Source of the DNA: an uncultured Verrucomicrobiota bacterium
GTDB taxonomy: Bacteria > Verrucomicrobiota > Verrucomicrobiia > Palsa-1439 > CAZOTB01
Direction: 5' to 3'
Length of the DNA stretch: 64,000 nt
NCBI GenBank assembly: GCA_964582645.1
Contig: CAZOTB010000002.1
Coordinates: 12,777 to 76,776 of the forward strand
Shown: positions 3,529-58,555 of the stretch, piece by piece
Layout: each line of letters starts with the position of its first letter
Position numbering within the stretch: the first letter of the stretch is position 1
Program-made: the position numbers and the translations under genes
The notes under the pieces: generated by a model
The model's database searches: none
Told to the model about the DNA's origin: nothing
What the model saw: only the letters and a program-made list of their open reading frames with translations

Positions 3529-4257
3529 TCAACTGTCCCGCAACTGATACGCGATGGCGTAGGCGCACTTGTGCGCGCCGCTGCGGTTGGTCTCGGCGCG
3601 ATGCCAGGTGTAGTTGGTGAAGAACGCCGCATCGCCCGGCGACATGGGGAGCAGCACTTCCTTCGAGAAATCAATCTGGTTGCGCGGAATCCGAAACCGC
3701 TGAAACGCCACGCCGTTGCTCGCGCTGTGGAAACTCGGTTCGTCGTAATACTGCTCGTGCGGCGTGAGTGTCCACGACTTGTGCGTGCCGGGGAGGATGG
3801 CCAGCGCGATGGCATCCTTGCCCACCTCGTCGAGCGCGATCCAGGAGTTGCAGCCCAGCTCGGGTTTGATGTGCCAGTAGTATGAGTCCTGATGGTAGAA
3901 CGATTGGCCGTCAATGGCCTTGTTCTTGATTAACGCCTGGTCCGTGAACCGTTTGACCGGCCCGCCGAGTAGTTGCGACATCGCGCCTTGCAGGTTGGGA
4001 TGGTCGGCGATGTGGCGAAAGACATCTTCATTCTTTGCCGGCTGTTGTACGCCGACGGGAATCATTTGTCCCCTGGCGTTCCGATACTTTGCGGGATCGA
4101 GCACTTGGAAGTGGGTCTTGCCCCATTCCGGCGAATCCTCGAGCAACTCCATGAGCCGGTTGCGGACGCGCGCCGCTTCTTCGCGCGAAATCAGGCCCCG
4201 CACGACTGTGTAGCCTTCCTCCTTGTACTGCTGCAATTGTGCTCCAGTGAGATTCAT
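3529..4257 (-). CDS. phytanoyl-CoA dioxygenase (PhyH) family protein, paralog
   Basis: 242-aa ORF showing PhyH-family similarity (HQDSYYW...H). It is tandem to the previous gene. Confidence 0.75.
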   Translation of the reverse strand: MNLTGAQLQQYKEEGYTVVRGLISREEAARVRNRLMELLEDSPEWGKTHFQVLDPAKYRNARGQMIPVGVQQPAKNEDVFRHIADHPNLQGAMSQLLGGPVKRFTDQALIKNKAIDGQSFYHQDSYYWHIKPELGCNSWIALDEVGKDAIALAILPGTHKSWTLTPHEQYYDEPSFHSASNGVAFQRFRIPRNQIDFSKEVLLPMSPGDAAFFTNYTWHRAETNRSGAHKCAYAIAYQLRDS

Positions 4258-4330
4258 CCTGGGTGTATGCTACCGAGCGCTCGCCGAAAGAGAATGGACA
4301 GCGTCCGCTGAAAAACTGTATTTTTTCAAC

Positions 4331-5197
4331 ATGCCCAAACGCCCGCCCATTCGCCCGCCGCGATTGCTGTTCGAGACGCGGCTTGGCTTGCGCCTGTTGT
4401 ACTGCGGACGGTTCGTCTGCAAACCCGACTGGCGGATCGAGTCGGACCGTCTCCCGAGCGGCATGATCGGATTTTTCTTCCTCGAACGGAACGGGTGCTG
4501 GTCGGAGGTCAACGGTCGGCGGTTGACCTTGAACGAGGGCGACCTGCAGGTGTTGCGCGCGGGCGACCTGCTCCGCATGGGGCACAACCCCGCCCGTCCA
4601 ATCACCGCATTGAGTCTCTCGCTCGCAGTCGAACAGGGAGTCGTGCCGAACATTCTGCTCCAGCGGAAGTTTGCCCGTCGTTACCGGATTCGCAATCGGC
4701 GCCGGTACGTGGAGTTGTTCGATGCGGTTCTGACCTCCTTGCAAAGTCCGCTCACCGTCCGCGATTGGGCCGTGTCGGGCGCCGTGCTGCAGTGGTTGGC
4801 GTACCTGCTCGACGAAACCGGCGCGCCGCTCTCCCCGCACACGGACCTGGCGGAGGGCACGATGGATCGGGTGTTGTTGGCCCAAGCCTGGGCCAGTGCC
4901 CGGCTTGCCGAGGTGCTGACTCTTGACGCGTGGGCGAAATCAGTCGGCTGGCATCCCGTTCACTTCGAGCGCGTGTTCAAACAGGAGACCGGCCTCACCC
5001 CGATGCGCTGGATCGAGGAGCGGCGCATGGAAGCGGCAAGACAATACCTCAGCGGTACCGCCAAGACCGTTGCCGAAATCGCCGAGGCGGTCGGATATCC
5101 CGATCCATTCTACTTCTCTCGCGTGTTCCGCAAACACTATGGTCACCCCCCGCTGCGGTACCGCAAGCTGGGCTTCGGTCTCAAGACGATGCCGTGA
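4331..5197 (+). CDS. AraC-family transcriptional regulator
   Basis: ATG at 4331 (MPKRPPIRPP). C-terminal AraC HTH (...AEIAEAVGYPDPFYFSRVFRKHYGHPPLRYR). Divergent from the PhyH pair. Confidence 0.7.
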   Translation: MPKRPPIRPPRLLFETRLGLRLLYCGRFVCKPDWRIESDRLPSGMIGFFFLERNGCWSEVNGRRLTLNEGDLQVLRAGDLLRMGHNPARPITALSLSLAVEQGVVPNILLQRKFARRYRIRNRRRYVELFDAVLTSLQSPLTVRDWAVSGAVLQWLAYLLDETGAPLSPHTDLAEGTMDRVLLAQAWASARLAEVLTLDAWAKSVGWHPVHFERVFKQETGLTPMRWIEERRMEAARQYLSGTAKTVAEIAEAVGYPDPFYFSRVFRKHYGHPPLRYRKLGFGLKTMP

Positions 5198-46598: not shown

Positions 46599-49500
46599 TT
46601 ACTTCTGGATGGTGAAGTCCGGCGAGGTGACCATGAGGTGGATGGTGGCGCGAACCCGGTCGCGTTGCTGGCTGGCGGTTGGAGGAGTCGAATACGGGAA
46701 GTTGGTCGAGGTGACGTACGTCACAATCGTGTTGGACGCGCCTGTGGACAACTGACCCGCCAGCAGCAGGGAGTTCAGCGTGCCCACCAGGCTCGGGACG
46801 CCGGTGTTGCTGGTGTAATTGGTGGTCATGTACGGACCAATGTCGAGGACGATCGAGCCGTTGCCGTTCTTAAAGCTGTTCAACCCATTGGTGTTCGATC
46901 CCTGGCTGTTGATGATCGCCCCCGCGAGGAAGTTGTTTTGCAGCGCCACACCGGTGTCGGACGTGAGCTGGAACTCGGGCGTGGTCAATCCCGCCGAGGC
47001 GAGAAGCCCCGGGAACTTGTAGTCGGGGAAGAAGTAGTTGAACACCGTCGGCGACCGCAACGGCGTCTGGGTCAGGTCGAGGTCGGTCACGCCCATGTTC
47101 CACGTGCTCGACTGGACCGTGACGTTGCCCGATCGCACCAGCGGCGGCCCGGCTAGCGGCGCGACCACGTGGCTGTTCTGGTTTTGATTGGCGACCGCGC
47201 CGACGACGATGGTGAAGTGATCCTCATCCACGACCGACGCCACCGCATACTGGCCGTCCGCCGCCGTGCCGGACATGAAATCAATATAGACCTGGTCGCC
47301 CGGGTTCAGCCCGTGGTTGCCGGCCGTGCTGACGGTGATGATGTTTGTGTTCGGCTGCGAGTAGCCGCCCTTGTAGAACGCGAGCAGGCAATTGCCCGAA
47401 AGCGTCGCCGCGTCCGGGGTCGTCACGCTGAAAGCCGAATTCGACGGCACGCTCACCACTTCGTACACGCCGTTGGAGGCGCCGCCCGTGGTGAACGTGA
47501 TGTGCAGCCGGTTGCTGACGGCGAGTCCGTGGCCCGCCGAGTTGATCGAGATGAAGCCCCCGGCCTGGTTGTACGCGCCCGTCAACACGCCCGTCGCGTT
47601 GACCGTGAAAGTGTTCACGCCCGTCACCGTCACCGGGTACGCGGTGCTCGTCGGTACCGGAGTTCCCGAATCAAACTGGAGGAAAATATTGTTGCCCGTG
47701 GCCAGCCGGTGGGCGTTGGTGGTCGTCACCGTGATCGCGCGCCCGCCGTTCTGGCTGTAGGTGCCGCCATTCGGCTGCGGCGACGGGAACGCCCGCGCCA
47801 CGCCCGTCGCGCGCAGTAACGGCTCGCGCTGCTTGCCGAACGTCGAGCGGGTGATCTGCGAACTGCTCCGCGCTTCGTAATCGAGCAGGATTGCCTTGAT
47901 CACCGCCGCCATGTCGCCGCGAACGCCGGCGCCGTTGTCGTGGAACACCTTCACCACCCGGTAGAGATAGTCCCGGCTCGGGTGGCTCGTCACGAGTCGC
48001 TGGATGAGTTGCCGGCAGACGAATGGGCCGACGTTTGGATGGTTAAAGATCGCGTCCAGGCCGGTCTCGAGTTCTTGCAAACCATAGTTGTCGTACTCCG
48101 CGTTTGTGGGGTCGGCCTGGCTTCCCGCCGCAGCGGGCATGACCACGTTGTCGAGGATGCGTTTGGTGCCGAGTTCGTGGCGGGTGGGAACGAGCTTCAT
48201 CGGGTTGATGTAATCGGCAGCCGGGCTCCAGTTCGTCGGCAGCCGTCCATTGCTCTGGTTCGGCTGGTTGTAGTTCCAGCCCGTGAACAGCCGGGAGTAA
48301 CCGATCACGACATTCTGATCGTAGGTCGGCACCAGGTTGTCCTGCGAGTTGAGCACCAGCGTGCCGTCCGGCCACATGCGGTAGAGGCCGACCGAGAAGA
48401 GCTGCAGAATCTCGCGCGCGTAGTTTTCGTTCGGGATGCGTCCTGTGGCGAGGTCGCCCTTCTCGTTGCGGCGCATGTCGAGATACAACCCCATCGCGGG
48501 CGTGAGCGTGACCGCTTCGAGGATTTCGCGGAAGTTGCCGAAGGCGTTGTCGAGCAGCGTGTCGTAGAAGGCGGAGAGGGCGCGTCCGTTGTTGTCGAGT
48601 ACGCCGATCTCGGAGACGACCAGGATCTCGCTCAACGCAAACGCCACTCGCTGGCGCAATTGATCGGGCGCGGTGACAGACTGTTGCCACCACGAGTTGA
48701 AGGTCAGGTTGCGCGGATAGGGCGCGGTCGGATCGGAACTGAGGTTCGCCAGCACGAACGGCAGGTGATGCGACACGGGCCTGGCAAACTGATCGTCAAT
48801 CCACGCTTCGTATCCCATCGCCTGCACGGCCGCGATGTCGCTCTGGCTCGGTCCGAACGTCGCCTGCATGAGGAACCGCGCTGCGGCGTTGGCGTTGGCG
48901 TGGTCGTCCGTCCAGGCAGGCGGATCGGGCGGCGGCGAAAACGTTTGCGAGCCATTGGCGAGCGTGTAGTTGCCGCGAATCTCGCCGGCAGGGTAGTTGA
49001 CGGTGTGGATGTTGATGAAGGCCTTGCCCTGCTTGATGACCTCGAGGACGTCCGCCGCCGAGAGCGTTCCTACGGCTGCGATGGGCCAGATGTAACTGCC
49101 GTCCGCCTCCGGCGTGGCATCATCAATGTCGAAGATGATCTGGCTCGGGTGGTTCAGGTACGGGTCGGAGTGGATGTGGGCTGCCGTGTATGGGGAAGTG
49201 AGATTGGTGTAGGCGAACGAGAAGGTCGCCTGGGATTCATCGGCGCTCAGTCGCAACGTGGACGTGCCGATGCCCTGCGATTGGGCGGCACCCTGGGCGA
49301 GCATGGTGGTCGCGTAAAGCGTACCGGGGATGGAACTCGGCGGCGGTTCGACGTACGGCGACAACACGAACCCGGGCACGACCTCGCTCGGTCCCGTGCC
49401 GGCCTGGTCGGGACGCAGCCATCCCACGGCGACATTGTCGTTCGTGCCCGTGCCGGCCTTGTGCAGGACCTCGATGTAGTAGCGCTGCCCGGCCACCAGC

Positions 49501-51428
49501 GCGAGCCACGGTGATTTCTGGTTGGGTTGATTGGTGAAACTCAACGGGGGCGTGCCGCTCGTGACGGAGGCGCGCTTCACTTTGTTGACCGGCTCGTGGT
49601 CATTGGAAATCCAAAGCTCCGCGGTATCGCTCGCGGCGATCCAGAAGTAGTAGTTGCCAGTTACCGGCGCAGTGAGATAGCCACGAATGCGCGCGCCGTA
49701 GTCGTCGCCGAAGTTGGCGCTCGCGAGATTGGTGAGCGTGCCGGCGCCGCTCGGTAGCGAATCGACCGGGATAGCGCTGATCGCAGTGCCGCCGATGCCC
49801 GTCCAGTAATCCCGCGTGATCGAGCCGCCCGTATCCTGAATCGTCAGATTCAGCACGGCGTAGCTCACGCCAAGCGCGTTGGAAGTGGTGAGCATGACCT
49901 GATAGGCTCCCGCGGCGGTGGGCGTGCCGCTGATGAGGCCGGTAGCGGGATTGAACGTCAAACCCGGCGGCAGGTTATTCACGTCAAACCCGAGCGGCAG
50001 GTTGCTGCCCGTGACCAGATAGCTGAACGCTCCGCCGACGAGTCCGACCGCGCTCGTGGGGCTGGTGATCACGGCGGGCGCGGCAGCGGTCGGATAGAGG
50101 CGCTCCAGGGGAATGGGTTGTTTCGTCTGGCTCTCGCTGTACCAGTAGAGTTGCACCGAGGCGCTGCCGGTGTTCTCGAAATACTCGAGCTTGATGTCGT
50201 AGCGGACGCCCGCCTCCAACGGGATCTGGTTTGTCCAATCAGTCGTGCCCTGCGTCTGCCATTGATCAATCAGCAACTGACCGTTGACCCAGAGCTTCAC
50301 ACCGTCGCTGCTGCGCGTGCCGAAGATGTACGTCTCGCTGTGCTCGGGTTGTACCTGGCCGGTCCAGCGAATGGAGAATGTGTTCGTACCCATCGAAGCG
50401 ATGGGCGCGTTGGTGCCCCAATCGAAATTGATCGTCGGGTCCACCTGTGTCAGCATCAGCCCCGTGAAATTCGCGGCATTCGTGTACGTCGCGCTGGCGT
50501 TATCATAGTACTGCCCCGTGAGGCCGGTGCCGGTGGGCGTGGACGAGTCGGCGATCACCAGCGAGGCGCTGCTCGGCGCATCCACGATGTAACCGCTGTT
50601 GGTGGCCAGTGTGAGCGTGACCAACTCCGATGCCTCGACCGCCGCATCCGCCATCGGCGTGACGGCGATGGTGGCATTCGTCACGTCGGGCGGGAGCATG
50701 ACCGAGCCGCTCAGCGGTGAAAAATCAACGCCGTTGGTCGCGGTGCCGCCGAGCGTGTAGAGCACCGTCAGTGTGTTCGTGCCGCCGTTGCGACGGATCT
50801 CGAAGATGCCCGGTTGCGGCCCATCCTCGGTGGCGTTCGGATTGAGCGTCGCGACCGAAAGAACGTTCGGGACCGTGATGAACTTGCCGAATGATGTCAC
50901 CCCATTCGTGATCGTCCCGGCCACGCTGACAGTACCCGTGCCCCAACCGCCGCCCGCAGGAAGCATGGCGGTGATCTGTTCCCGGTTGACGACCACGACG
51001 TTGGAGAGCGTGACGTTAATCGGCGACCCGATGGTGATGAGGGGCGGCGTGTTCGTCGGGAAACCAATGCCGAACACCGTCACCGGCATCGGCACGGGGT
51101 TGGTGCGCGCGAAGGGAAAGATGGCAGTGGTCACGTGCGCCCGCAAACCGACCATGACCTGGTTGATCACCAACGAGTCGGCGCCCGAGACGGTGCCATT
51201 GTCGTTGACGTCGCCGTTCTCGAATCCCGTGACGGCGAAGATCGGGTGGGTGTTGCTCCTGAGACCGACCATGACCTGGTTGATGAGCAGCGAGTCGGCG
51301 CCCGTGACATGGAAATCGCCGTTGACGTCACCCGGCGGGTAAAACTCGTTGGTCTGGGCAGATGTACTCCACGCCAACGCAGAGCAAAAAAATAATGCGC
51401 CGAGGATCCGTGTTGTCATCATGGCCAT
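46599..51428 (-). CDS. giant multidomain DUF1800 protein (dockerin-like repeats, Calx-beta, PA14 x2, cadherin-like Ig, CHRD, DUF1800, T/G/N-rich C-terminal region)
   Basis: ATG at complement 51426-51428 (MAMMTTRILGALFFCSALAWSTSA signal peptide). Domains recognised by motif: DVNGDFHVTGADSLLINQ (dockerin-type), PA14 GLTGQYYDN...FSIRWTGQ, CHRD ...AAHIHSDP...NIHT..YPAGEIRGN, and DUF1800 ...FLMQATFGPS.... Confidence 0.85.
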   Translation of the reverse strand: MAMMTTRILGALFFCSALAWSTSAQTNEFYPPGDVNGDFHVTGADSLLINQVMVGLRSNTHPIFAVTGFENGDVNDNGTVSGADSLVINQVMVGLRAHVTTAIFPFARTNPVPMPVTVFGIGFPTNTPPLITIGSPINVTLSNVVVVNREQITAMLPAGGGWGTGTVSVAGTITNGVTSFGKFITVPNVLSVATLNPNATEDGPQPGIFEIRRNGGTNTLTVLYTLGGTATNGVDFSPLSGSVMLPPDVTNATIAVTPMADAAVEASELVTLTLATNSGYIVDAPSSASLVIADSSTPTGTGLTGQYYDNASATYTNAANFTGLMLTQVDPTINFDWGTNAPIASMGTNTFSIRWTGQVQPEHSETYIFGTRSSDGVKLWVNGQLLIDQWQTQGTTDWTNQIPLEAGVRYDIKLEYFENTGSASVQLYWYSESQTKQPIPLERLYPTAAAPAVITSPTSAVGLVGGAFSYLVTGSNLPLGFDVNNLPPGLTFNPATGLISGTPTAAGAYQVMLTTSNALGVSYAVLNLTIQDTGGSITRDYWTGIGGTAISAIPVDSLPSGAGTLTNLASANFGDDYGARIRGYLTAPVTGNYYFWIAASDTAELWISNDHEPVNKVKRASVTSGTPPLSFTNQPNQKSPWLALVAGQRYYIEVLHKAGTGTNDNVAVGWLRPDQAGTGPSEVVPGFVLSPYVEPPPSSIPGTLYATTMLAQGAAQSQGIGTSTLRLSADESQATFSFAYTNLTSPYTAAHIHSDPYLNHPSQIIFDIDDATPEADGSYIWPIAAVGTLSAADVLEVIKQGKAFINIHTVNYPAGEIRGNYTLANGSQTFSPPPDPPAWTDDHANANAAARFLMQATFGPSQSDIAAVQAMGYEAWIDDQFARPVSHHLPFVLANLSSDPTAPYPRNLTFNSWWQQSVTAPDQLRQRVAFALSEILVVSEIGVLDNNGRALSAFYDTLLDNAFGNFREILEAVTLTPAMGLYLDMRRNEKGDLATGRIPNENYAREILQLFSVGLYRMWPDGTLVLNSQDNLVPTYDQNVVIGYSRLFTGWNYNQPNQSNGRLPTNWSPAADYINPMKLVPTRHELGTKRILDNVVMPAAAGSQADPTNAEYDNYGLQELETGLDAIFNHPNVGPFVCRQLIQRLVTSHPSRDYLYRVVKVFHDNGAGVRGDMAAVIKAILLDYEARSSSQITRSTFGKQREPLLRATGVARAFPSPQPNGGTYSQNGGRAITVTTTNAHRLATGNNIFLQFDSGTPVPTSTAYPVTVTGVNTFTVNATGVLTGAYNQAGGFISINSAGHGLAVSNRLHITFTTGGASNGVYEVVSVPSNSAFSVTTPDAATLSGNCLLAFYKGGYSQPNTNIITVSTAGNHGLNPGDQVYIDFMSGTAADGQYAVASVVDEDHFTIVVGAVANQNQNSHVVAPLAGPPLVRSGNVTVQSSTWNMGVTDLDLTQTPLRSPTVFNYFFPDYKFPGLLASAGLTTPEFQLTSDTGVALQNNFLAGAIINSQGSNTNGLNSFKNGNGSIVLDIGPYMTTNYTSNTGVPSLVGTLNSLLLAGQLSTGASNTIVTYVTSTNFPYSTPPTASQQRDRVRATIHLMVTSPDFTIQK

Positions 51429-51794
51429 GTTCGAGTGAATCGGGTTGTCGTCGGAACGCGCCGTTTGTGTTCTGAACACCGGCCGCGCCATTTGGTTGCG
51501 GACAAGAGCGGCAAAGCGTCCGAGGTGCCACGCTCTGCTGAACCGCCATTCGGCAAGGATATCCGCGATCAACACACACCCTCCCCCGCGCGTTCAGGAC
51601 AAATCATCGTCGTGCCTGTGAAAACGGCTGCATCGTAGGGGAAAAAAGCGCGTCTTGTCAACGCGCCAGCGCCCTGCCCTTTTCGATTTCCATTCCACCT
51701 GCGGCGGATACGATACTGCCGTGTCTCGACACGCCCTGATCGGGGACCGGATCTGGGATGGGCACCCTGCCGGACGCTCGAACAGCTTGCGTCT

Positions 51795-55542: not shown

Positions 55543-56310
55543 TCACCGTAGGAACCGTCCCCCATTCACATCCACAATCGCGCCGTTGGTGAACGAGGAG
55601 GCGTCGCTGGCGAGGAAGAGCGCGGCCTGGCCGACTTCCTCGGCGGTGCCGTTGCGACCGAGTGGTGTTTCCTTTCGGTACTGCTCCATCCGTTCTTTTG
55701 AGCTATAGACTTCATGATGCCGCGTTTCGATGACCCCGGGACAGAGCGTGTTGGCGCGGACCTGCGGTGCCAGCTCGCGCGCGAGCGTGCGGGTGAAGAC
55801 CTGCAATGCGCCCTTGGCAGCGGCATAGGGACCGGCCCCGTTCGCGCCGCCGGTCTGCGTCGAGAGCGAGATGACGTTGATGATGCTGCCGCTGCCGGTG
55901 GCCTTGAGATGCGGGATGGCGCGCTTGGTGACGAGGAACGCGCTGGTCATGTTCACATCGAACACCTTCCGCCAGATGTCGAGTGGGCAATCCTCGATCT
56001 TCGCGCGCTGAATCGGATCGCCGGCATTGTTGACGAGAATATGCAGCTTCTTCGTCTGTGCCACGAGTTGATCCACGATGGCGTTGGCCGCGGCTTCGTT
56101 GGCGAGATCGGCCTGGAGCAACACACCGTCGCTCTTGAGCCGGCGCACTTCGGCAAGCACGGCCTCTGCCTCCTTCTTGCTGCTTCGGTAATGGATGCCC
56201 ACGAACGCTCCGGCGCCGGCCAACGCAAGCGTGATTGCGCGCCCGATTCCAACGCCGGCGCCGGTGACCAGAGCCACTCTCCCGGATAGATCAAACTTCG
56301 TCCCTTTCAT
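55543..56310 (-). CDS. SDR-family oxidoreductase (FabG-like)
   Basis: TGAGVGIGRA Rossmann motif, NNAG, and the S...Y...K catalytic triad pattern. Confidence 0.85.
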   Translation of the reverse strand: MKGTKFDLSGRVALVTGAGVGIGRAITLALAGAGAFVGIHYRSSKKEAEAVLAEVRRLKSDGVLLQADLANEAAANAIVDQLVAQTKKLHILVNNAGDPIQRAKIEDCPLDIWRKVFDVNMTSAFLVTKRAIPHLKATGSGSIINVISLSTQTGGANGAGPYAAAKGALQVFTRTLARELAPQVRANTLCPGVIETRHHEVYSSKERMEQYRKETPLGRNGTAEEVGQAALFLASDASSFTNGAIVDVNGGRFLR

Positions 56311-57218
56311 CGTCGCGGCATCCTACGAATCGGAGGCACGGTGTGACAAGAGGCGATTGGTCCAAGCGCGCGATACTCTTTCGGGCTTGCGTCGGTGATC
56401 TGCCGAAATCATCGTGAGAAATAATTCACGTCTTCGATCCCGCACTGGACGCTGACTTCCTTGATGGGCAGATTGGTGTGTTCGAGCAGCTTTTGCGCGT
56501 GCTGAATGCGGTACCGGGCGAGGTACGCCATCGGGGACAGGCCGAGGCATTTCTTGAACAACGGATACAACTTCGACCGGCTCACCCCGCTGCTGAAGAC
56601 CAGTTCTTTCAGGCTGATGTAGCGGTGGGGCGCGCCGGACAGGTTCCGGCAGGCTTTCCGTTGCGCCGTCGCTGCCGTTCCCTGCCGTGGCCGACGGGTA
56701 GCGCTTCTGGTTTTGGCAGAATCCACGAACAAGTCGGTGATCATCCCATGAATGACGAGAGATGCACGCGCCTCAAATCCGGGCGGCTTTCGTCGCATCA
56801 GACCGGGCAATCGTTCAAAATGCCGGACCCAACGCGCGCCATCGCTCTGGGCGAGGGCGCGCAGGTATGGCCGCAAATCCAGAGTGATATCGAACGCGGC
56901 ACCCTCCAACGCCAGTATCGCGGTTCGTACGCCGAGCCCTATCGGAACGCGCCGGCACCGCGCCGCGACCGGTTGCCGCATCGAGATTTTCTCACTACGA
57001 CGAGCATGATCGCCACGCGAGGCTGCCACAATCGCTGCGGATTCTCCTGTTGGTCCACCAAGGGTCTCCCCATGCCGTACCTGATGCGCGACGTTCCACA
57101 TTCTCACGCCGTACCCGGGCACGCCGTTGTTCGAGCAGATGGAACGTGAAGGCCGGTTGCTCCACCGCCACTGGGACTTGTACGACACCGCCCACGCCGT
57201 ATTTCGTCCCCGGCACAT
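56307..57218 (-). pseudogene. AraC-family regulator gene interrupted by an in-frame TGA inside the HTH (internal stop at complement 56409-56411)
   Basis: The HTH reads ...EDVNYFSR [TGA] FRQITDASPKEYRALGP... Reading through, the frame ends at a TGA overlapping the ATG of the downstream SDR gene (ATGA). The true N-terminus is uncertain because 56838-57218 is also covered, antisense, by radical-SAM remnants. Confidence 0.45.
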
Positions 57219-57552
57219 GACGCCCGAGGAACTCGAAGCCGGCTACGAGTGGTGCTACGAACGGCTGTTCACGCATGCAAGCATATGGGCTCGCCAACCC
57301 GCCGATTGGCGCGCCGTGCCGGCGTATCTCGGCATGACCTATCTCTACCGCAAGTCGAACCCGCTATGGTGGTTCTTGATCAGGCATCGGCTGACTGCCG
57401 CGGCGTGGAGGCCGCTCGTGGAACTCACCCGCCTGCGTCATCTCGCCCTGCGACGAAAGCCGGCCGCGGAAGCGCCGGCTCAGGCTTCCTTCGACTTCAC
57501 CGAGGCCAGCTCGCGAATCTTGCGCAGATCGAGCTTGCCGGTGCCGAGATAA
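56838..57552 (+). pseudogene. remnant of a B12-binding radical SAM (class B, DUF4070-containing) gene, fragmented across two frames with a large internal deletion
   Basis: Frame A: ...GEGAQ...APAPRRDRLPHRDFLTTTSMIATRGCHNRCGFSC... Frame B from 57085: ILTPYPGTPLFEQMEREGRLLHRHWDLYDTAHAVFRPRHMTPEELEAGYEWCYERLF. Only about 20 aa separate the Cys cluster from the C-terminal domain, where about 200 aa are expected. Confidence 0.35.
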
Positions 57553-58474
57553 GGCAGCTTTTCGATGTGGATGAACTGATCGGGGCGCGGCTTCCAAAGA
57601 TTGGGGAGATCCGACGCGCCGGGCTTGTCCACACAGGGCTTGAGTTTGTCGTCGGGAAGGGTGTGCAGGACGACGAGGCGTTCGCCTTTCTTCTCGTCGG
57701 GAACCCCGGTGACGGCAAAGGTCTGTTCCGTCGCTTCCGCCAGTTCGTGAAGTTTCTCCTCGATCTTGATGTGCGGCACCATCTCGCCGCCGATCTTGCT
57801 GAACCGAGTGAGACGGTCGGTGATCTGCAAGAAGCCATCCTCGTCGAGCGTGGCAACGTCACCGGTGCTGTACCAGCCATCGCGCAACACCTCGGCGGTT
57901 TTGTCGGGACGACCGAGGTGGCCTTTTATCACATTCGGACCGTGCACCCAAACGAATGAAAGAACGGCAGGATGCCGAGCAGGCAATCGCGCTTCTCGAA
58001 CGCGAAGACCTGGCCGAGCTGTTCGATGTTCGAAGCGATGTTGTAGTGCGTCAGCATCACGCCCTTGGGATCGCCGGTGCTGCCGCTGGAAAAGATGATG
58101 GTGGCGAGATCATCGAGCGGGTTGTGTGATGCGGGGAGTGTGGAGCGTGGAGCGTGGCCGACGGCCCGCTCCAACAATGGGGTGGGCAACAGCCAGGCCT
58201 TGCACGCCGAGGAGAACATCTCGCCGAGGGATGGCTTGGCGGCGATTTCCTCCAACAGAATTGTCTGCCCCGGAACCTTGAGCTTGAGTTTGTCGAGGAA
58301 CGCCTTCGAGGTGATGATCGTCTGCAGGTTGCACTGCCGGGCGCACGACGCGAGGACTTCTTCGTGGGCGGTGTAGTTGAGGTTGACGGGAACTTTGCCC
58401 ATCAGGAACGCGGCGTGATTGACGAGGGCGCCGCCCACGGACGGCGGCAGGAGAATGCCCCCAAAATCCGACAA
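57480..58474 (-). pseudogene. remnant of an AMP-binding (acyl-CoA/acyl-ACP synthetase, Aas-like) gene in two frames with an internal deletion
   Basis: Track ORFs 57929..58474 (…IIFSSGSTGDPKGVMLTH…LPFFHSFG) and 57480..57986 (…VIKGHLGRPDKTAEVLRDGWYSTGDVATLDEDGFLQITDRL…) overlap in different frames. About 200 aa of the central domain are missing. Confidence 0.45.
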
Positions 58475-58555
58475 CCAATCACCTATTACCCGCTGCTGAA
58501 GCCGCGATCACCTTTTCGTGTTCCAACGCTCTCACGCGACTTGCGTCCGCGAAAT

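Follow-up and report, generated by a model that had tools for sequence, protein, structure and literature searches.

What is an AraC-family gene that carries a stop codon in the middle of its DNA-binding domain, and is it still read to its end? The question is raised by a short region on the minus strand of a 64,000-nucleotide stretch of contig CAZOTB010000002.1 from an uncultured Verrucomicrobiota bacterium (henceforth the window), where an original prediction made from the sequence alone had placed an AraC-family gene with an in-frame TGA at 56307-57218, translationally coupled to a downstream short-chain dehydrogenase (SDR) gene. Our analysis indicates that the feature is very probably the 3' remnant of a nonfunctional AraC/XylS-family regulator gene, a pseudogene in a decaying patch. 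The remnant (56307..56850, minus strand, with an approximate 5' boundary at 56840-56855) consists of a linker and a double helix-turn-helix (HTH), about 180 codons including the internal stop, as delimited by HTH_18, HMMER, tblastn and alignment.

The stop itself is beyond dispute in the letters. On the minus strand one finds ...GIEDVNYFSR-TGA-FRQITDASPKEYRALGP..., where the TGA occupies 56411..56409. Exactly 33 further codons follow in frame before a second TGA at 56309..56307, the full reading being ...GIEDVNYFSR TGA FRQITDASPKEYRALGPIASCHTVPPIRRMPRR TGA; both the stop and its continuation are thus as originally described. The in-frame TGA (56409..56411, minus strand) lies inside the second HTH, at the 'x' of the conserved YFSRxF(R/K) motif, and breaks the uninterrupted frame through both HTH motifs that is characteristic of AraC/XylS regulators. 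When the frame is translated through the stop, the C-terminal double HTH of about 100 residues is recovered. Pfam HTH_18 then spans the stop (E=1.1e-21, residues 53-126 matching profile positions 6-79 of 80), HTH_AraC matches with E=2.3e-17, and the structures of XylR, AraC and MarA align across the stop position without gaps. Given that the HTH_18 match and these three alignments all cross the stop, the continuity of the frame is not due to chance. In the structure alignment the stop takes the place of the 'V' of YFSRvFKK, a Val in both XylR and AraC, and corresponds to about residue 97 of MarA, which we take to lie in helix 6, the recognition helix of the second HTH; on this assignment the stop likely falls in the recognition helix. 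A read-through product would be recognizable by the peptides FRQITDASPK and EYRALGPIASCHTVPPIR.

The residue aligned with the TGA is Leu in seven of the nine closest relatives, with one R and one V in the other two, and a sample of 100 family members shows a wider choice of mostly hydrophobic residues (L 31, V 17, A 11, R 7, C 5). Since TTA accounts for only one of the 156 Leu codons in four neighbouring genes, the TGA came either from a rare codon, by a two-step path from TTG, or from CGA (Arg), and the sequence is compatible with each of these ancestral codons. A second substitution is found five residues past the stop, where Asp (FRQITDASPKEYR) replaces the Gly of the F(R/K)xxxGxxPxxYR segment, a Gly present in 9/9 closest relatives and in 76/93 family members.

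The open reading frame (ORF) that ends at the internal stop extends over 269 codons (56409..57218), and used as a whole in an exhaustive HMMER query it gave 8819 AraC-type matches. The best full-length relatives (P0002, P0003, P0005-P0010; 300-340 aa, 43-47% identity for the closest ones) have a cupin-type AraC_binding domain (PF02311) followed by HTH_18 (PF12833), and align only from about residue 124-133 of the ORF onward, which is their own residue 130-140 or so. The reverse comparison by tblastn agrees well. For eight full-length relatives the match to the window begins mostly at 56819-56855 (one at 56912), at residues 110-167 of the relative (125-140 in five of the eight), and runs down to 56367, straight over the stop, while their first ~125 residues found no match in any frame of the window at E<=10. 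The PF02311 sensor domain expected at the N-terminus of an AraC/XylS regulator is missing from the remnant, and the upstream 158 codons of the ORF had no Pfam match. The originally proposed extent to 57218 therefore has to be shortened, as AraC homology starts only at about 56840-56855 and the remainder is antisense to a second gene remnant; position 57218 is the boundary of an ORF and not the start of a gene.

MAFFT aligned parts of the N-terminal portion of the ORF with the cupin consensus, and we dismissed these matches as forced because the segment 'VRMWNVAH' is the antisense of ATFHILTPY, a conserved radical-SAM motif, and recurs in the shadow ORF P0021. A word-index homology search with the remnant returned only an identical Logan protein, and a metagenome scan with the remnant only one relative, at 41% identity. 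The window also contains an intact AraC-family paralogue (4214-5197, plus strand; Cupin_6 and HTH_18, 327 codons stop-to-stop), but with ~36% identity over the HTH it is no more than a distant relative of the remnant.

The spurious upstream part of the 269-codon ORF (56851..57218, minus strand) is an open frame antisense to a radical-SAM remnant and is not derived from AraC. Its translation matches only P0021, P0143 and P0149, which resemble shadow ORFs antisense to radical-SAM genes, while the plus strand opposite is 59-75% identical to radical SAM proteins. The radical-SAM pseudogene is in two pieces on the plus strand. The 5' piece (56838..57092, found by tblastn) ends just past the CxxxCxxC motif, and the 3' piece (57085..57489), in a different frame, covers the DUF4070 region (Pfam DUF4070, E=2.2e-5). 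Residues 1-82 of the protein P0158 match 56844-57089 (61% identity, E=2e-27, tblastn) and its residues 222-346 match 57085-57459 in the other frame (75% identity, E=3e-59); more than 2000 radical SAM proteins match the two pieces. Between them about 139 codons are deleted, the whole radical-SAM core, and Ser has taken the place of the third Cys in CxxxCxxC (CHNRCGFS). The remnant gave no match to the core domain PF04055, and it has neither the intact motif nor the core of a DUF4070 (B12-type) enzyme. AraC homology (from ~56850) and radical-SAM homology (from 56838) abut directly, leaving no intergenic DNA.

A long-form relative, P0197, has a B12-type N-terminal domain of ~130 residues that is absent from the window, and its residues 131-215 match the 5' piece. 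This protein (361 aa, JGI/ENA), from another lineage, has independently lost the same core region through an internal deletion within a single ORF. We considered that the core-deleted form might be a genuine short family and rejected it, as the breakpoints in P0197 differ. The 3' piece has been called as a hypothetical protein of 141 aa (57127..57552). The radical-SAM remnant lies between the arms of an 18-nt inverted repeat (17/18 complementary; 56780-56797 and 57449-57466). Each arm codes for 'RRKP', one in the AraC motif RRKPPGFEA and the other in the radical-SAM tail, and we judge the repeat coincidental; an inversion between the arms was rejected, since AraC homology goes on for ~45-60 nt past the arm.

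The next gene along has fared no better. An Aas-like gene (acyl-[ACP]--phospholipid O-acyltransferase / acyl-ACP synthetase, where ACP is acyl carrier protein), which in its ancestral form encoded ~1150 aa, survives on the minus strand as a 3' piece at 57483..57986 (NCBIfam NF006386 positions 989-1143 of 1147, E=3e-63; Pfam AMP-binding_C) and, in another frame, a 5' piece at 57932..58474 (NF006386 positions 669-840 of 1147, E=1e-60; Pfam AMP-binding positions 50-221 of 384). It has lost ~668 N-terminal and ~148 internal profile positions, and the pieces score 206 and 214 bits, well short of the NF006386 cut-off of 1221 for a full-length protein.

Within these 2.2 kb (~56307-58550) there are only fragments, of the AraC, radical-SAM and Aas-like genes, and at least four deletions and one nonsense mutation can be counted. 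The flanking genes, i.e. panC, nadB, a GDSL hydrolase, the SDR and a TolC-like gene, are intact, and since they lie on either side of the fragments the decay is local. The nearest relatives of the window genes come from Planctomycetota or Verrucomicrobia metagenome-assembled genomes (MAGs).

The AraC remnant by itself carries at least three lesions, namely the 5' deletion that includes the promoter, the nonsense codon and the Gly-to-Asp substitution. The product of its ancestor was probably ~310 aa long, with a cupin-type AraC_binding sensor at the N-terminus and the double HTH at the C-terminus. A deletion has taken about the first 130 codons along with everything upstream, promoter included. 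The AraC and radical-SAM genes may once have been divergent, in which case one deletion would have removed the AraC 5' end together with the shared intergenic DNA; this fits with the arrangement of the intact relatives, as 5/5 of those examined are transcribed divergently from their upstream neighbour. The TGA may have preceded or followed the 5' deletion, and the process would have been ordinary neutral deletional erosion.

A variant of part of this locus gives a relative date for one of the deletions. The variant contigs L019-L021 (from JGI 3300037501, 3300043177 and 3300037465) match the window in two blocks in the case of L019, 56963-57948 at 92% and 57938-58072 at 98.5%, with 443 extra bases between them. 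The window blocks overlap by 11 nt and the corresponding ends in L019 show GGCCGTGCACC and GACGGTGAACC, imperfect direct repeats, so that the junction in the window (57938..57948, strand not applicable) marks a deletion of ~454 bp in the Aas-like gene between imperfect 11-bp direct repeats. To judge from this alignment, the deletion is microhomology-flanked and specific to the window's lineage. The gap in the radical-SAM core is shared by L019, and the core deletion is therefore older than the ~454-bp deletion. As a sister locus for the TGA these contigs were uninformative, given that only the radical-SAM/Aas part is common to the window.

Some features of the variant contigs are worth recording. 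To the left of window position 56963 they carry a giant PKD-repeat gene (protein >4016 aa). In L019 the 3' end of this giant gene is ~70% similar in nucleotide sequence to the 5' region of another gene of the window, which encodes a protein of 1664 residues (46599-51593, minus strand; Dockerin, Calx-beta, two PA14, He_PIG, CHRD and DUF1800 domains). P0202 is the 94%-identical counterpart of the 141-aa protein in the variant locus, and one arm of the 18-nt inverted repeat is conserved in L019. Two of the samples (JGI 3300037465 and 3300043177) hold both contig types, and both types end at window position 58072, a shared end that suggests a fork in the assembly graph; the variant may be a second strain or a duplicated segment. 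At L019:9900-9925 (about window 57030-57050), the CxxxCxxC region contains a tandem duplication of 18 bp (TGGCTGCGGATTCTGCTG). Right beside this site, at window 57027, is the end of the Logan contig L001; a repeat or polymorphism at ~57030-57050 may break its assembly.

Several observations weigh against a pseudogene, or at least against an old one. Before the stop, 30 of the 35 well-conserved columns keep the family consensus, and not a single frameshift has occurred across the ~180 codons of the remnant. For these two reasons the gene was either inactivated fairly recently or remains in part under constraint; the same retention suggests that the loss is evolutionarily recent. The minus-strand frame is moreover open for 277 codons upstream of the TGA, which is why gene callers predict products of 190, 230 or 269 aa. 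The comparison with orthologues proposed at the outset could be made only in part, as the relatives at 43-47% identity have a sense codon in place of the TGA, whereas a sister species with an orthologue did not turn up, so that both the intact ancestral state and the order of events are read only from those relatives. Finally, the 5' truncation of the radical-SAM gene is uncertain, since many of its homologues start near 56838-56890.

Could the conserved fragment then be a working gene in its own right, a small regulator that has dispensed with its sensor? Isolated DNA-binding domains of AraC-family proteins, such as those of AraC and XylS, can be active, and a product of ~111 aa starting at the internal ATG 56744, or a longer product from ATGs further upstream, might bind DNA through its first HTH and affect the SDR gene. 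The first HTH and most of the second are indeed well conserved, and two pipelines call the ORF as a gene. Nevertheless, the stop removes everything from the middle of YFSRxF in the second HTH onward, including the conserved G..P..YR segment, there is no promoter-like signal above chance upstream, the neighbourhood is a patch of fragments, and no homologous short form has been shown to be conserved. We consider such a regulator quite improbable. A related and still more doubtful idea is that the truncated HTH, or a rare product of UGA read-through that ends at the ATGA overlap, binds near the SDR promoter and tunes SDR expression. If true, it would explain the ~180 frameshift-free codons and the 30/35 positions kept.

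The original prediction had favoured a recent nonsense mutation as one option, in a gene otherwise complete and coupled to the reductase. A pseudogene it is, but not a full-length one with a single lesion, as ~130 N-terminal codons and the upstream region are deleted and the Gly has become Asp. For a complete gene of 269+34 codons one could point to the ATG at 57218 that opens the 269-codon ORF and to the overlap with the SDR start. Against it, residues 1 to ~125 of the ORF resemble neither AraC nor any other Pfam family and are antisense to radical-SAM-like sequence (59-75% identity), and the cupin domain of the relatives is wholly absent. With the evidence on coupling that follows, we regard a single nonsense mutation in a complete, coupled gene as very unlikely.

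The SDR gene (55543..56310, minus strand) is intact and encodes a FabG-like short-chain dehydrogenase of 255 aa (Pfam adh_short_C2, E=1.6e-57, profile positions 1-234 of 236; also NCBIfam). Its relatives, 62-65% identical and from Planctomycetota MAGs, have the N-terminal 'FDL..RVALVTGAG' in common with it, and this conservation of the N-terminus supports a start at 56310. The ATG (56310..56308) overlaps the TGA that ends the AraC frame (56309..56307) in an ATGA (56310..56307), as had been noted, and the two genes are co-directional. The 4-nt overlap is thus an observation, while the statement that the genes are still translationally coupled is an interpretation of it. Translation halts 99 nt before the overlap, so that the upstream gene is not translated to its end, and the pairing is not conserved either. 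In GTDB synteny an AraC gene upstream of the SDR was absent in all six closest SDR relatives, and among the five intact AraC relatives examined none had an SDR gene overlapping its stop. In three of them the next gene downstream lies on the opposite strand, P0002 is followed by an unidentified gene on the same strand 108 nt downstream, and the contig of P0152 ends too soon to tell. An ancestral full-length gene coupled to the reductase, as originally supposed, is not borne out by either set of relatives.

The overlap may also be less telling than it seems. The SDR gene starts with ATGA regardless of the upstream frame, and by our own estimate the chance that an unrelated frame would land on it is ~0.2 (0.56 for 18 non-conserved codons staying open, times 1/3). 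The tail past the Tyr of the YR motif is 21 residues long, which falls within the range of the family (the median is 9, and 19/93 members have at least 21). All in all, an ancestral coupling of the AraC and SDR genes is plausible from the sequence but unsupported. The SDR gene would now be expressed from another promoter. A sigma-70-like site (TTGTCA-18 nt-TAGGAT, 56349..56320, minus strand) lies in the post-stop tail and ends 10 nt upstream of the SDR start; it is the only one of its kind in the region, a count at chance level, and its placement would suit an SDR promoter.

Another way to rescue the gene is to suppose that the UGA is decoded, by selenocysteine insertion, programmed read-through or a reassigned code, and that translation proceeds to the ATGA overlap. 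The post-stop frame is open and homologous, and its 33 codons end exactly at the SDR start, as one would wish for such a case. Nonetheless, we found no sign of recoding signals. The segment 56340-56425 (minus strand; 86 nt, from 14 nt upstream to 69 nt downstream of the TGA) folds with -15 kcal/mol (z=+0.57; 140 of 200 shuffles were as good), i.e. no structured element or stable hairpin follows the TGA, and there is no selenocysteine insertion sequence (SECIS) hairpin right after the UGA. Rfam had no match in the window, and no tRNA gene of any kind was found in its 64 kb, including tRNA-Sec and suppressor tRNAs. For a selenoprotein one would look for Cys at this position in relatives, but here the closest ones have mainly Leu, and Cys occurs in 0/9 of them and in 5/100 of the wider family. 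A code in which UGA is a sense codon (tables 4/25) is contradicted by the neighbours, for TGA ends the SDR, GDSL, panC, GFO/IDH and paralogous AraC genes, all with complete Pfam domains, in DNA of ~61% G+C. The mutated invariant Gly past the stop, and the absence of a sensor domain and a promoter from any product, speak against it as well. Recoding is extremely unlikely, and the read-through that the original prediction had mentioned finds no support, TGA being the usual stop of the intact neighbours.

A sequencing or assembly error, with a sense codon as the true reading and a gene intact across the HTH, is effectively excluded and the least credible possibility of all, because five assemblies, made from five samples by at least two pipelines (Logan and JGI), agree in all 31 nt around the TGA, and even with a sense codon the gene would be without its N-terminal domain and promoter. 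The Logan assemblies SRR12686701 (2951 bp) and SRR12687342 (2205 bp) are 100% identical to the window segment, as are JGI 3300043177 and 8530 bp of a 73.9-kb contig from JGI 3300037465. The fifth, JGI 3300043267 (contig L025), is 99.85% identical, with six differences, none inside the AraC remnant; as it differs at these six other positions it represents an independent consensus. We rejected the contigs L023-L026 as a sister lineage, for at 99.85-100% identity they belong to the same population, and the five assemblies accordingly replicate the base call without adding evolutionary depth. The differences in L025 lie at window positions 58178-58210, 55301 and 54739, four of them in a 33-nt stretch of the Aas pseudogene piece, a clustering that possibly reflects relaxed constraint or mixing with the variant haplotype.

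Given that a decayed regulator gene is the preferred reading, the annotation of the region should be changed. The 'AraC-family' protein of 190, 230 or 269 aa predicted by gene callers is a pseudogene, and likewise the radical-SAM and Aas-like pieces. About 40% of the longest call (269 aa) is antisense to a different dead gene, and what is left of it is a truncated remnant interrupted by a stop. The locus bears on no open question about recoding or regulation, and instead illustrates on a small scale how deletional decay is under way in a free-living environmental bacterium like those of the Planctomycetes-Verrucomicrobia-Chlamydiae (PVC) group, with one deletion that can be dated relative to a co-occurring variant.

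To place the remnant among known systems, its closest relatives (P0002, P0003, P0005, P0152 and P0153) are uncharacterised proteins on PVC-type metagenomic contigs. With them it shares a linker and double HTH at 43-47% identity, including the family-specific motifs RRKPPG(F/Y)EA, GVSRS and YFSRLFRQ, and like theirs its gene appears to have been transcribed divergently from the upstream neighbour. Unlike them, the copy in the window is without the sensor domain of ~130 residues, has a stop in the second HTH and carries Asp for an invariant Gly. The better known XylR, AraC and MarA of E. coli (PDB 4fe4/4fe7, 2k9s and 1bl0) align without gaps over ~85 residues including the stop position, but only their HTH domain is related to the remnant (E=1e-12 to 5e-5), and the sensor of XylR, of the periplasmic-binding-protein type, is unrelated to the cupin domain of the remnant's close relatives. 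Bacterial pseudogenes reportedly decay by nonsense mutations and under a deletional bias, as described by Mira, Ochman and Moran in 2001 and in later work. The locus shows the same picture, with several independent deletions (one of them with microhomology) and a nonsense mutation in adjacent non-essential genes between intact housekeeping flanks. Ordinary pseudogene decay is an already known phenomenon, and measured against it nothing here is unusual; what stands out is only that three neighbouring genes are all affected.

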